From assembly GCF_056746865.1 (NCBI RefSeq), contig NZ_CM163382.1: a stretch of DNA of 64,000 nt; one strand, written 5' to 3'. A program made the position numbers. Shown piece by piece: positions 27,001 through 33,000 of the stretch; within the stretch, counting starts at the first letter, position 1, and every line of letters begins with the position of its first letter.

Positions 27001-30000
27001 GCGGGTTTCCGCTTCATCAATAGAGAGAATATCGGCAACATGCTGGTTACGCGCTCTGGCTTCATTCAGGCGTTGAGTGAGGTGTTCGGCCTTTTCCTGT
27101 TCTTGCTGTAGTGCGCGTTGCAGCGCCAGTTCGCGCTCACGGCTTTCATCCTGAGCCCTGATTGCATCTTCCAGACGTTTTTCATCTGCACGACCTGAAG
27201 ATTGTGTTAATGGAGGGAGTGTAAATTTGGGGCAGTCATCAACATTACCGTGGGCGTAGCGAACATACAGCCAAATTCCCAACAAATACGCTTCTTTGAG
27301 CAGCCAGTAAGTATCTTTAGCTTTGATACGTCCGCCGTGCGCGGCACGGTTGCCATGGATACGCAGCGCATCCATTTTCATGATGATGGCTTCCGGCATC
27401 ATGCTGGTAAAGACATCAGCATTCATTAAATCGTAAAGATTAGCCTTAATACCTTCCGGCAACCGCTCCTGACGATACAACCAGCGCACCATCAATTCGG
27501 TGTAGTTGCGCAGCTTGACCAGACAACTTTCCGGATCGGAGTGAACATAGCGTTCCGCCATACACGCGAGTTCAGCCAGTTCCGGCCACTGGCTGCGCAA
27601 CATTTCAAAATTGAGAGACTGCTCCATCAATCATCGCCTTATGTCGTGGATACAACAGCATTTCTGGAAAGAATATCACACTAATTTGGCCGACGAAGTG
27701 AGCCGGATGGCATATGGTGGTGATGTGTTTAACGACATAACTGCTCTAACGGTCAGATCCTTGGTTTTCGCCCATCAATGGGCATCTTCAGCCATGGCTA
27801 CTCACAGGATACCTTGCTAACCAATGAAGGTATGGCTGATCATCTATGGGATATGTTTTTTGAGCCAATAAAACGATGGAGCTTTTCTCCAAGTTCATCA
27901 TTAATGAATTTTGTTTCAATGCATTAATCAACTCTTCGCATTTTCGCTATCTTTTATCCACTTCCCTTTTGAAAAGGTGGGTATCTACGTTACCAATACT
28001 GGTTTAATGGCTACATACGGCGGTCCGTTTACGCTTACGGTAAAGATAAGCGATAAGCTCCCAGCGCTAGGACCGGGAGCTCTGCATAGCTACCACCATT
28101 TAGGATAGTCGTTAAAAGCACGTAATATTGATTGCCTGGCAGCAGGCATCAAGCTTTTCACTTCCTTTTGAAAGGGAGATACCACCATTGATATCTTCCT
28201 TCATACATGACCAATTCAGCACACCAGCGACTGGATATGGCGGGAAATGGTGGCCCGGGGGTTACAGGCAGTGAAACCATCGTCAGGGATGCTGTTGCCA
28301 AATGGCGTAAAGGCTGGAACCCACCAGTTACTACTGCCGCCAGACTTCCTTCAGTGTCCCGGGTAAGCCGCTGGTTGATGCCCTGGATAATAATCAGGGG
28401 TGAAGAAAATTATGCTTCCCGATTTATTAGTCTGATGTGTGAAAAAGAACCGGCGCTGAAAATAGCGCAGCAACTAGTACTTGAGTTCTACCGTATTCTG
28501 AAAACCCCAAATAAATCAAATCTAAGCAGTTGGTTCACTCGAGTCCACGAAAACGGTTCAGCAGAACTTCGGCGCGTGGCTGCGGGGATGGAAGCTGATG
28601 CTGCGGCTATATGTGAGGCAACCAGCAGCCGCTGGAGTAACGGTGTTGTCGAAGGTCATGTAAATCGCCTGAAGATGCTGAAACATCTGATGTATGGTCG
28701 AGCCGGATTTGAACTACTTAGGCAGAGGGTAATGAGTCCACTGGCATGAAAATCTCCACCTAGGTTGCGGAAGAGCCACTTTTGCACCGTTCGTGATAAT
28801 ACCGTAAATAAGCCTCTGAAAGTTATAGGATATGACACAACTAAAGAAGTCTGTGTGAACCGCGTAATACCAAGTGAATTGCTTGTTATATCTGTTTAAT
28901 TAAACCTAATCGACCAGCCTTACTGGAGAGGCTGGTTAGTGATTAACTGGGAGTATTGCAATTAGATGTGTTCTACAGGCCCACGAAGGTAGATGGCTGC
29001 CAGAGTTCATCTTCGCGTGTAAAAGACTCTTAGTTGATTAATTCTAATTTATCGATCTATTACGCGATCATAATATTCGATGATTTGCAGTGCAACAGCA
29101 GCAATTTGTACTGCTTCCTCCCTACTGGTACCGGCTGCTTTACCACCAAAACGATCATGGAGGACAGCCTGATGAAATTCTCCCACCTCTTCTCCGAGAA
29201 TCGCTCCCCAGATAAAAGGATCTTGATTACGGTCTGCCCCCCATTTGGCATCCTGCCGTTGCATTTCCGCTAGCACGTCAGACAGGGCTTTAGTGTCTTG
29301 ATGTTTACCTTTCATGTTTCCCTTACGAATCCGTGATTTTAAGTCCATCATTAACATTTAATATGTGCAGAGTCCATTAATTCGCTACATCTCATTTTGT
29401 GAATGAGCGTTGAGTTTGCTATAAACGTAGCAACCAAGAAAAATAAAAGTGGATAATTTTGTTCATTACCTTTCAAAGCAAGAAGTTAAGGACTATTTGC
29501 GAGAGTATGCATGAGGCAAATGAGATCTTTGGTGACAAAGTGGCATCAAGACTACGCTCGCGACTTTCCGATCTTTCCGTGACAGACAACATATTACTGT
29601 TGCCCGTAGGTTCGCCGGAGGTCTGCTTTGAGGATGGGGAAGAGTGTATTACAATTACCATTCTCGGTGATGTAAAAATGGGATTTGTCTGTGGGAATAC
29701 AGTTCAGCCCAAAAATCAAGATAATACAATTAACTGGTCCCGAGTTAGCCGGATACGGTTAGTGTTCATAGGTGACGTGAAATGATAGTTACGCAGGACT
29801 TCCAGCCTGACTGGGTATCTCCACCCGGTGATACAATTATAGATCTAATGGATGAACATGGGCTTTCTGGTGAAGAACTGAGTAAGAGGATTGGATTGTC
29901 TCTTATCCGGGGTCAGCAACTTCTTGAAGGAAAAATCCGACTCAATGAGTCTCTGGCTTGTAAGCTTGAGGAGTTATTCAACGTATCGACAGACTTCTGG

Positions 30001-33000
30001 ATCAAGCGCGAAGTCGCTTATCGCCAGCAAATTGGATACCTCGAGAAAGTGAATAATGATTGGCTCGAATCATTGCCTGTACGTGATATGATGGAGTTTG
30101 GTTGGATCCCCAAAACTACAACTCGGGAAAGTAAATTCCAGCACTGCCTATCGTTTTTCGGAATAAATTCCGTCAATGATTTTTTTTATAAAATTCAGTC
30201 AGATGCTCCTTTGGTCGCTTTTCGTAAATCTCTTAATCTGGCAACCGAGCCTATGGCCGATTTGGTGTGGCTGACTAGGGCTGCACAACTTACCTCAAAC
30301 CAAAACTGTGCTGTATGGGATAAAGAGGGGCTGATAGCATTGTTGCCAGAACTGCGCAAAGCTACAAATGAACCCGACATGAGGATTTTTATCCCTTACA
30401 TTCGCGACCTTCTCGCCACTGCTGGAGTTTCTCTCGTTGTGTTGCCAACGCCAAAGGGATGTCGGGCAAGTGGTGCTACCTGCTTTTTTACACCAGATCG
30501 CGCAACCCTAGTCATGAGTTTCCGTTATCTGACCGATGACCATTTTTGGTTTACGCTGTTTCATGAGATTGGGCATCTCATCTTGCATGAAGCTGTCCGA
30601 GTTCGCGTAGAAGGTAAAGATAGTCTTTCGTCGGAAGAGGAAAAGGAAGCAGATAAATTTGCCGTTGATGTTCTTATCCCAGAAGAATACCGGCAGCAAC
30701 TTAGTCGCTATGGTGTCCGGCATTGGAAAGAGATCATCCGGTTAGCTAGGAAAATGGGGGTATCCAAAGGGATCGTACTGGGATATTTGCAGCATGAAGG
30801 TAATATACCTTTTTCTCACCTTAATCGGTTTAAAGTGAGATTCCGTAAAGAAGATATCGTCTGATATCAGCCGCCGAAATAGACATAACGGTCAGGTGAT
30901 TTCTGCCAGTTGCACAACGCATCTTCAATAACCTGCATTCTCAAGTAGGGTGCAGGAATAATTGCCGCAAGGTCAGCTAGTTTTTCATTCAATACGTCTA
31001 TTGTGTCACCAGCAGTCCGGCTATTGCTGAAAAGTAGCCGGCTTCCTTGAAGGGGCCCGGTTGCTCCATTCAGAAAAGCATGACCCGGCTCTACATCCAG
31101 AAGTCCCGTTTTCTTGAGCATAGTTAGGTAATCAAATTTTGCGGTTCGTCCAAATGAGATCACGGCATTTAGCCCTGAATACAATAGTTCGAATAAAGAT
31201 TCTGGTGAAGATGAAAAGCTCTTGGCCTCTGCAAACCTAGCCTCATGACTGTGTGTAGCACCAATGAATCCGATGTAAGAGCGAAAAACCGCAGGTATTG
31301 AACGACGAGAGTGATATTTCTTCGTTTCATATTTCCGATGGTTACCATATTGTCTTAGGCTACTGTTAGCTGTCAACTCATCAGAGACGCTGGCGAACCA
31401 TTGTTCAAAAGCAGCAAAGTCATCAGTTATCGTATCCCATGTCCACGTTTGTGTACCGAGTCCACTGTATATATCTCGACACAAAATCCAGCCGGTTTTG
31501 TTACTCTTGCCGAAATGTGTGGCAAGGAAAACCAGCCAGCAGGCTTCATCGTAATTGTTGTCACGAAGATAAAGGCAGGCAGCGCGGAGAGGATCAAAAA
31601 CATCAGAATTCGGCTCTTTTCGTAACGGAGTCATATAATCGGTCCGTAATGCAAGAGTTTCCACATAGCGTATACGACGTATACTGTCGATAATCTGACA
31701 GGCTAAAACATCAAAGCAGGCAGGAGAACTTAGGCCATTTAGGTTGTGTTCATTGCGGCTAAAATTTTGCAAATTACTAACCAGCTGACTGATTTGATTA
31801 TGTCTTTTCATTGTAGTCTTCCTTCAAAAATAAACCGATATTCCTGATTTTTCATTGCAGCCAACTCTTGGAAGGCTAGTCCTTTGTGGTTGGGTGTATG
31901 TGAACGTAACAAAAAGTGGATTTTTAATATACGCAATAAATCCTTCCAGTAGTCATTCAAGGAAGTAGTGTCAATATCAAATTCCTTATTCTCTCGAAGA
32001 GCTTTTTCTGCCTCAAGCAGGGGTAAGATATCATCTAAGGAATGCATTTCAGGCATCGATCCCATGACTGGTAGGGTGCTCATGAACCCCTCTTTCTGAA
32101 GAGCCTTCACTTTTTCTAAATCATTTTTATAGAGATGTAGGCTGGATACAAAGTGATGATAGTGACCCAATTCGCATCCTATCAAGCGGGCAACTAATTC
32201 CTGTAGCATCGTGAACGCAAATACATCATGAGGCAGCCCCATAAAGGCATCGTTAGAACGCATACAAACAAATAGATGCAGCTCTTCACATCTGACAATA
32301 AACTGCATAGATATTGTACAAGGAATATCTACGTATTCTCGCTGTTCAGTTTTTGAGGGCACCAAGTCTGAGGCATCGAAAAGCTGTATTACTGCACGTC
32401 TGGTAGGTTTTTTCTCCTGCAAAAGGTTGATAACATTTTTTAGCTGATTATATAAACCACGCATATTAAACAACCGTGGCCCGTAACCACCATGTATTTT
32501 CCCATCTGACTCAGCGGATTCAGCGTAACGTGGTATGAAGTGTTTTATAAACTCAAGATCGTTCTGAGCTGAGAGATACCACAGAAATTCACCTAAGCAA
32601 CTAATTAGTTTTCCTCGGGATTCTGTTCTACTTATTCTTCGGCGGGGGTCGGTAAGGACAAGATAGGCACCAAGAATCTCTAGAGTTGATCCTTTTGTAG
32701 GATCGTTACTGAGTCCATCCGCTAGGATAGCTTGATGAACATCGTTTATCAGATCGTCAACACACTCAGCCGTTACCAAAAGAGTCATTTTCTACCTTTT
32801 CCTGTATGGTAGTAACTAATCATTACCACCTGTATGGCATATAGTCAATATAGTATCAATATCAACATGGTTCACAGGGTAAGTAAGACTTGATCTTACC
32901 CAGCAATAGTGGACACGCGGCTAAGTGAGTAAACTCTCAGTCAGAGGTGACTCACATGACAAAAACAGTATCAACCAGTAAAAACCCCGTAAACAGCATT

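Follow-up and report, generated by a model that had tools for sequence, protein, structure and literature searches.

A pair of overlapping genes in a 64,000-nucleotide stretch of DNA from NCBI RefSeq assembly GCF_056746865.1, contig NZ_CM163382.1 (the whole stretch is termed the window here), raises the question of whether two proteins that look like a toxin and its antitoxin act as such, or whether they are the switch of a larger genetic unit. Gene A (29459-29785, + strand) starts with TTG and encodes 108 amino acids with the HigB fold. Gene B (29782-30864, + strand) starts with ATG and encodes 360 amino acids, with a HigA-like helix-turn-helix (HTH) domain (residues ~12-80) and an M78 peptidase domain (residues ~237-332) on either side of a conserved middle part. 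The stop codon of A and the start codon of B overlap by 4 nt, as ATGA. The original prediction described a HigB-like toxin with a peptidase-containing antitoxin, lying convergent with a ThyA-like operon, and suggested a regulatory or trigger module. The open reading frames, their sizes, the overlap, the FHEIGHLILHE motif of B and the spacing of ~2 bp between the convergent stop codons are all as that prediction had them.

The answer proposed here is that A and B form the control half of a conserved mobile cassette, most likely anti-phage, and that the output of the cassette would be the pyrimidine-modifying enzymes encoded next to the pair. As argued from sequence comparison, this reading has perhaps an even chance of being correct. 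It draws on an obligate linkage of four genes that have diverged together, on the loss of the HigB catalytic residues from A, and on the homology of B to a component of the PD-lambda-2 defence system.

Linkage of the pair to two enzyme genes

Two genes on the opposite strand converge on A and B. The nearer one (30867-31811, - strand) encodes a 314 amino acid protein of the alpha-glutamyl/putrescinyl-thymine pyrophosphorylase clade 3, or ADDT, family (aGPT-Pplase3; Pfam PF18746, E = 4.8e-90), and 2 bp separate its stop codon from that of B. The farther one, the ThyA-like gene (31808-32788, - strand), is the first in this operon and encodes a MilA-like pyrimidine (cytidylate) C5-hydroxymethylase. 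On the other side of the pair and divergent from A is a gene for an 88 amino acid protein annotated in RefSeq as MazG-like family protein (29049-29315, - strand), a name given by PGAP, the NCBI annotation pipeline.

An alignment of B was used to scan one genome per species, which gave 80 loci, and the neighbouring genes were analysed by open reading frame calls and hidden Markov models (HMMs). All 43 B proteins of the window clade (those with at least ~33% identity to the window B) have aGPT-Pplase3 on the opposite strand, adjoining the B stop codon. The distance from the B stop to the aGPT-Pplase3 stop ranges from -22 to +31 nt, with a 4-nt overlap as the mode (41 loci). Wherever the contig allows, a ThyA-like gene lies beyond aGPT-Pplase3, next to it or with one further gene between them. 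The hosts are spread over about ten phyla: Gamma-, Alpha- and Betaproteobacteria, Acidobacteriota, Bacteroidota, Gemmatimonadota, Myxococcota, Chloroflexota, Verrucomicrobiota and Actinomycetota. Plasmids of Pantoea and Leptospira carry the same layout, and Serratia grimesii has an identical block of five genes, with the MazG-like gene among them, in another chromosomal context.

The linkage is also found when the search starts from the enzyme. Four further aGPT-Pplase3 homologues, sampled at five places in Salmonella, Pseudoalteromonas and metagenome contigs, all have B tail-to-tail, and A is present where it has been called. A neighbour-joining tree of B separates the 43 linked proteins, as one block, from a second block of 39 unlinked proteins. 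The pairwise distances between B proteins track those of aGPT-Pplase3 (r = 0.86), the ThyA-like protein (r = 0.83) and A (r = 0.81), and overall the distance matrices of the four proteins correlate with r values of 0.75-0.86. The tail-to-tail linkage across the clade and in the enzyme-side sample thus identifies A and B as half of a conserved four-gene cassette, which is inherited as a unit and has five genes in Enterobacterales, where the MazG-like gene is added. The suggestion of a regulatory or trigger module, connected with the ThyA-like operon, gains strong support from the linkage at these 43 and five loci.

The two proteins of the pair

Gene A lacks annotation in RefSeq, where B appears as an XRE family transcriptional regulator. 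That A is a real gene is concluded from its 641 full-length homologues (cluster representatives at E ≤ 1e-3 in an exhaustive search, ~105-111 amino acids, aligned end to end), from a ratio of nonsynonymous to synonymous substitutions of 0.15 between E. coli and Serratia, which denotes purifying selection, and from the presence of a homologue immediately 5′ of B in ~76 of the 80 loci from other genomes. PGAP and other gene callers also skip A on the Pantoea plasmid (L088, ~4680-5011) and in Salmonella (L091, a gap at 7024-8329). Annotation systematically misses this TTG-start gene, and defence-system finders therefore see only an "XRE regulator" beside a "thymidylate synthase". The aligned first codon of A is TTG in 27 of 43 linked loci (E. 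coli, Serratia and Xenorhabdus among them) and in 10 of 31 unlinked loci. This is far above usual usage, which suggests selection for weak translation initiation and fits a tightly limited expression of the control module.

The A protein is divergent in sequence. HMM scans of Pfam (E ≤ 0.1), NCBIfam, PADLOC and PHROGs gave 0 matches, and PDB sequence and profile searches gave nothing significant. Within the A family, 3 of 111 members match PF05015 (best E = 0.004), and an hhalign comparison with Proteus vulgaris HigB has a probability of 34% and covers only the N-terminal 75 columns. An AlphaFold2 model built with a 111-sequence alignment has a mean predicted local distance difference test score (pLDDT) of 94.7 and a beta-alpha3-beta4 topology; the model depends on the alignment, as the single-sequence prediction has a pLDDT of only 40. 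The top Foldseek match of the model is P. vulgaris HigB (template modelling score 0.63-0.76, probability 1.0). The modelled protein is thus a RelE-type alpha/beta protein with the HigB fold. The description of A as HigB/RelE-like holds at the level of predicted structure, where the fold is present, and finds no confirmation in the HMM libraries.

The fold is kept without the active site. A proteins from 78 loci (43 linked, 35 unlinked) were aligned to P. vulgaris HigB, whose sequence as used agrees in length and in the C-terminal Tyr91-His92 with the PDB entries labelled "Y91A" and "DeltaH92". The catalytic residues of this mRNA interferase are taken here to be His54, Asp90, Tyr91 and His92. 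In the linked clade, the equivalents of His54, Tyr91 and His92 are found in 0 of 43 proteins and that of Asp90 in 3 of 43. In the unlinked group His54 is kept in 32 of 35 proteins, Arg73 in 35, Asp90 in 33, Tyr91 (as Tyr or Thr) in 33 and His92 in 35; these proteins carry HxLKGDRxGQ and a C-terminal GDYH or EDTH, and weak PF05015 matches remain. Both motifs are missing from 107 of the 111 closest A family members in a library of 1.8 billion proteins. The window A reads ...GSPEVCFEDGEE... at the position of the first motif and ends in ...FIGDVK. With the active-site equivalents lost, A is unlikely to be an mRNA-cleaving toxin, and the toxin label of the original prediction finds no support. A would be a HigB derivative for which, judged by its residues, mRNA cleavage is very unlikely.

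What A has conserved lies elsewhere. The near-invariant residues are F5, R11, C14, E15, R35, D38, W93 and R98, and the conserved regions are the N-terminal strand and helices (including A20, G25, L32 and L36) together with W93, V96 and R98. Plausibly, this is the surface that binds a HigA domain. The isoelectric point of the window A is 5.8, and the family is near-neutral (median 6.0).

The B protein belongs to a large family (1400 clusters at E ≤ 1e-5) that is strongly conserved, and its two domains are recognizable. It matches Pfam Peptidase_M78 (PF06114; E = 9.9e-11, 42 bits, cut-off 22) and barely exceeds the cut-off for HTH_3 (23.9 bits, cut-off 23). Residues 12-80 align with the HigA structures 4mcx and 6chv (E = 2e-4), and the match to the HigA model TIGR02607 (E = 7.6e-5, 22.5 bits) is under its cut-off of 47.7. 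The zinc-binding and catalytic motif H261-E262-I-G-H265 can be read at 30562-30576 (+ strand), followed by a predicted third-ligand region, E287-E-K-E-A290, at ~30640-30651 (+ strand). Both an alignment of 40 sequences and the comparison of 82 loci show H261, E262, H265, H269, E287 and A290 to be invariant, and HExxH with the downstream Glu is kept in 43 of 43 linked and 38-39 of 39 unlinked homologues. The predicted fusion of an XRE HTH with an ImmA/IrrE peptidase is borne out by these matches. Since the peptidase residues are invariant in homologues, the domain is not degenerate, as it would have to be to refute the original prediction; the protease looks active.

By far the top PADLOC match of B is PD-Lambda-2_B (PDLC03982; E = 8.7e-30), which covers B residues 15-341 and profile positions 60-378 of 402. 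Weaker matches, to the protease core, are those of RmrA, CapP and Lit. The RmrA models match the protease core alone (E = 4e-10 or weaker), and a weak similarity to the CapP structure 7t5t is found. B also matches phrog_2439 (E = 3e-29).

The unlinked relatives form a sister clade that has the same two-gene architecture, overlap, B family and invariant protease site. It differs in that it retains the HigB active site and has variable neighbours, whereas the window clade has lost the site and has fixed enzyme partners. No aGPT-Pplase3 or ThyA-like genes are found with the unlinked clade. At least seven unlinked pairs lie between hsdM and hsdS/hsdR of type I restriction-modification (R-M) systems (L049, L053, L061, L064, L065, L066 and L080, at ~6650-8110 in each). 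Other neighbours are a type ISP enzyme, an N6/N4 methylase, an HNH nuclease, a long adenosine deaminase and an ABC-3C CTD7 protein. The unlinked pair thus looks like a free-standing defence-island module with changing neighbours.

Enzymes, presumed control regions and genomic surroundings

The neighbour first described as ThyA-like does belong to the thymidylate synthase (TS) family (Pfam Thymidylat_synt, E = 5e-25), although it is closer to MilA than to thymidylate synthases. Its closest solved relative is the cytidine monophosphate (CMP) 5-hydroxymethylase MilA (5b6d; E = 1.6e-41 over the full length), and true TS enzymes match at best with E = 1.4e-18. The catalytic Cys is kept (DIPCT), and where TS has Asn177 the enzyme, like MilA, has Asp (GLPHD). 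An Asp at this position marks cytosine over uracil substrates. The residue therefore suggests that the enzyme probably hydroxymethylates a cytidine nucleotide, and a MilA-like cytidylate hydroxymethylase is its predicted identity.

aGPT-Pplase is a glycosylase-fold family, of which the clade 2 members are amino-acid:DNA transferases in phage thymidine hypermodification. Clade 3 has ~3900 bacterial and metagenomic clusters. There is no tblastn match to aGPT-Pplase3 among 50,697 phage records and no convincing PHROG, and clade 3, in contrast to clades 1 and 2 of phages, appears to be bacterial. The cassette also has neither the 5-hydroxymethyldeoxyuridine (5-hmdU) DNA kinase nor the deoxynucleoside monophosphate (dNMP) kinase of the known phage pathways. 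The MazG-like protein matches phrog_24212 (E = 2e-37), which has no assigned function in that collection; Pfam, NCBIfam and PDB searches gave no match, so that the name is that of PGAP only. Its homologues hold the same position in Serratia, and they accompany the cassette in enterobacterial loci only.

The cassette has other variable members. An optional gene is found between aGPT-Pplase3 and the hydroxymethylase gene at L010 (9027-9869), L018 (8995-9792), L046 (9012-9803), L094 (4204-5004) and 11 more loci. It encodes a family (F4) of ~265 amino acids with invariant GLNPSNREF, RRFHTL, NPYDxWF, CHLDLIPYAT, LNG, LPR and NHNxQSSxG, for which no Pfam, NCBIfam or PDB profile match was found. The motifs recall MUG/UDG glycosylases, a resemblance that may be superficial. 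In other phyla a DUF4031 gene often heads the hydroxymethylase operon (L014, 10835-11152; L025, 10030-10440; also L038, L041, L048, L028 and L010). Enterobacterales have the MazG-like gene instead, on the opposite side of the cassette.

The 143 bp that separate the divergent MazG-like and A genes (29316-29458) presumably hold the promoter and operator. Within them is the perfect palindrome TTGCTA-N6-TAGCAA (TTGCTATAAACGTAGCAA; 29416-29433), 26 bp 5′ of the A start, which is a candidate operator. The palindrome is unique in the window, yet it is not beyond what chance would give, and Serratia has a degenerate right arm. The search of 29316-29458 for a consensus promoter gave none, and a scan for promoters and terminators yielded nothing beyond what shuffled sequence gives. 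The convergent B and aGPT-Pplase3 genes have no terminator between them, and no room for one. The ~100 bp upstream of the hydroxymethylase gene (32789-32890, - strand) contain a promoter-like TTGACT-18-AATGAT at 32848-32819. Homology to Serratia upstream of this gene ends at the end of an insertion sequence (IS), an IS3 copy (32891). The IS3 copy (32891-34117) is inserted ~100 bp 5′ of the hydroxymethylase start and spares the promoter-like site. Searches of Rfam revealed no RNA family in 28000-34000.

Positions 17300-43000 of the window are collinear with the E. coli chromosome NZ_CP033635.1, with an identity of at least 99.9%. A 1.7-kb region of the locus is found in 234 of 5426 complete E. 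coli genomes (~4%), in 230 of them at 99% identity or higher. A type I R-M system adjoins the cassette (hsdR match, E = 1.7e-273), and an ISL3 transposase fragment (28235-28749) is found between hsdR and the MazG-like gene. In the RefSeq annotation of the identical record, the segments 18850-27630, 34268-35500 and 37000-43000 hold the type I R-M genes, an AAA-ATPase/hypothetical gene pair, a dGTPase-family gene, pap fimbrial remnants and an ISCR2-floR-tet(A) resistance region. The R-M, AAA ATPase and dGTPase-family genes, together with the IS elements, make the surroundings of the cassette a defence island.

Possible functions of the cassette

The pairing of a RelE-family gene with a fusion of Xre and COG2856 domains has been known since 2009, and PD-lambda-2 is its validated defence example. 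Makarova et al. (2009) proposed that such fusions beside RelE or PIN toxins are proteases that cleave the Xre repressor in a three-component circuit, and the same repressor cleavage has been suggested for RmrA-type protease antitoxins, which are hubs of defence toxin-antitoxin systems (Ernits et al., 2023). In PD-lambda-2, B is toxic, A neutralizes B, and a third gene, C, is needed for defence (Vassallo et al., 2022). The PD-lambda-2 locus of E. coli ECOR42 resembles the window locus in having a small RelE-superfamily gene followed by an Xre-HTH and ImmA/IrrE fusion, with B homologous over its full length, in its location in E. coli accessory DNA, and in needing further gene(s) beyond the pair. 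It differs in A, which is PF09907 HigB_toxin; the window A matches neither PF09907 nor the PADLOC model PD-Lambda-2_A. None of the six flanking open reading frames scanned with PADLOC matches PD-Lambda-2_C, the neighbouring enzymes have no PADLOC match, and the gene that follows B is convergent. With an A of another RelE branch and no C, the locus is not counted among the PD-lambda-2 systems. The best PD-Lambda-2_B match seen (E = 4e-49) is from the temperate Achromobacter phage CF418P1 (L090, 3666-5593), where the B homologue is near the integrase with a 95 amino acid and a 161 amino acid gene at its sides; neither of these matches PD-Lambda-2_A or PD-Lambda-2_C.

Other relatives share the protease and the HTH. 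In ImmR/ImmA of ICEBs1, DdrO/IrrE of Deinococcus and RmrA, an M78/COG2856 protease is associated with an XRE HTH, and the protease inactivates the repressor or antitoxin on a signal. In the CapH/CapP pair of cyclic oligonucleotide-based antiphage signalling systems (CBASS), an M78 protease inactivates an XRE HTH repressor on a stress or infection signal. ImmR/ImmA, DdrO/IrrE and CapH/CapP have the two domains as separate proteins and no RelE-fold partner, whereas the window B is a fusion, and their cargo (genes of an integrative and conjugative element, repair genes and CBASS) differs from the window enzymes. RosmerTA, in which RmrA pairs with unrelated toxins, was considered and rejected: the RmrA models are far below PD-Lambda-2_B on B, and A, with its RelE fold, does not belong to the Rosmer toxins (RmrT). 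MilA, of the mildiomycin pathway, has the same catalytic Cys as the window enzyme and likewise an Asp where TS has Asn. MilA works with the N-glycosidase MilB in antibiotic biosynthesis. The window enzyme instead has aGPT-Pplase3 as its partner and a defence-island context.

In the proposed switch, A would descend from an active HigB mRNA interferase, with its fold and N-terminal helices kept and its active site lost. A may now serve, without catalysis of its own, to bind the HigA-like domain of B, and B may be a HigA-type DNA-binding repressor fused to an ImmA/IrrE-type zinc protease. With the MazG-like gene transcribed away from A and B, and with aGPT-Pplase3 and the hydroxymethylase converging on them, the A-B complex of an uninfected cell could repress its own promoter and the divergent MazG-like promoter while the protease is kept quiet. 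A trigger, perhaps infection or DNA damage, would activate the protease, which might cleave B itself, A or another target. Cleavage would then turn on the output of the cassette, the pyrimidine-modifying enzymes encoded tail-to-tail.

What the output does is more speculative. Perhaps the cassette is a protease-gated immune effector that destroys or poisons nucleotides and is fired by a sensor made of a pseudo-HigB and a HigA-M78 fusion, an idea that is put forward tentatively and judged unlikely. The MazG-like pyrophosphohydrolase would turn (d)CTP into (d)CMP, the MilA-like enzyme would hydroxymethylate (d)CMP to a product that host kinases could not recycle, and the glycosylase-fold aGPT-Pplase3 would split off or transfer the modified base. 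The outcome could be an irreversible loss of cytidine nucleotides for phage replication, or mis-modified phage DNA. An RNase toxin-antitoxin pair may have become a dedicated switch once killing had moved to metabolic enzymes. The DefensePredictor report (Science 2026) lists WP_000174035.1, the ThyA-like protein of the window, under the heading "Predicted novel defense gene" (mean log-odds 7.6). It also highlights a predicted system of aGPT-Pplase, an HTH protein and a homologue of a known defence gene, and from this description it is likely the window cassette. DS-4, which is validated there, consists of TS, a dNMP kinase, a 5-hmdU DNA kinase and a TIR protein and is without the A-B pair. DS-4 and the aGPT-Pplase/HTH system are alike in being bacterial defence candidates built from phage-type pyrimidine-modification enzymes.

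Several points weigh against the proposal that A and B control the enzymes. Linkage denotes co-function and does not tell which half controls which. No perfect inverted repeat with 6-nt arms is shared by the 200 bp upstream of A and of the enzyme operon at any of 37 loci (0 of 37, as in the control), which leaves the idea that B directly regulates transcription of the enzymes unsupported, though the test is a crude one. The enzyme operon also has its own promoter-like site, TTGACT, which is conserved with Serratia. The link between A-B and the enzymes may be post-translational, may operate through convergent transcription, or may have been missed by the crude operator test. As the B protein of PD-lambda-2 is itself toxic, B and not the enzymes could, by analogy, be the effector here. 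The antitoxin label given to B in the original prediction is unsafe for the same reason, since in PD-lambda-2, the one characterized relative, the Xre-peptidase protein is toxic and the HigB-like A neutralizes it. The PD-lambda-2 A is of a different RelE branch (PF09907), so that a transfer of its behaviour is uncertain, and this too counts against the proposal.

The toxicity of PD-lambda-2 B leads to an alternative in which the locus causes abortive infection: the M78 protease of B would kill by attacking an essential host protein, A would be its inhibitor, and the enzymes would be accessory or sensing components. The full-length match of B to PD-Lambda-2_B speaks for this, as do the behaviour of the PD-lambda-2 genes (B alone toxic, A rescuing, C required for defence only), the invariant protease site, a dead HigB that suits a pure inhibitor, and the weak similarity of B to the Lit protease. 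Two nucleotide-modifying enzymes with intact catalytic residues are hard to see as accessories, however, the PD-lambda-2 A branch and C have no counterpart at the locus, and the toxicity of the window B is a prediction by analogy. This explanation is judged unlikely. Still less probable is a role for A and B as regulators of a DNA or nucleotide modification cassette by which a mobile element marks or protects itself, in the manner of a C-protein or ImmR-ImmA controller in a new host. The transferase activity of the aGPT-Pplase relatives in phage hypermodification would suit such a role, and so would the mobility of the cassette (plasmids, varied chromosomal sites and IS flanks), the A-B relatives in type I R-M operons and beside methylases, and a tail-to-tail layout like that of many R-M systems. 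Yet the two kinases named above are missing from the cassette, clade 3 is absent from phage genomes, and there is no conserved restriction partner.

An ordinary HigB/HigA addiction module that stabilizes the island, with the ThyA-like gene nearby by accident, is what the layout by itself would suggest: the toxin-first order, the 4-nt overlap, the HigB fold and the HigA-like HTH are those of classic HigBA loci, and some homologues are named "killer suppression protein HigA" or "antidote protein". Compared with the prototype of PF05015 and TIGR02607, P. vulgaris HigBA of Rts1, however, the window A has no counterparts of His54, Asp90, Tyr91 and His92, and the window B is ~280 residues longer than HigA and includes the metalloprotease. 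The catalytic loss is clade-wide, an invariant protease domain would go unexplained, and the enzyme linkage spans about ten phyla and is seen from either side. The lost catalytic residues and the obligate linkage are the grounds on which the plain addiction module is rejected as largely refuted, and its chances are considered very slight.

Measured against the accessible literature, three features appear to be new, although earlier surveys of aGPT-Pplase families may already cover this neighbourhood: the HigB active site is lost throughout the clade, the clade is strictly coupled to the hydroxymethylase/aGPT-Pplase3 operon, and its sister clade in R-M operons is, by contrast, catalytically intact. 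If A and B are the control half of the cassette, the locus would be an example of a domesticated toxin-antitoxin pair, in which the toxin has lost its chemistry and been kept as a regulatory subunit, with an ImmA-type protease-repressor retained as the switch. It would also tie a widespread candidate defence system, composed of aGPT-Pplase3 and a cytidylate hydroxymethylase, to a homologue of PD-lambda-2 B, for which toxicity and rescue are known, and so provide handles for experiment.

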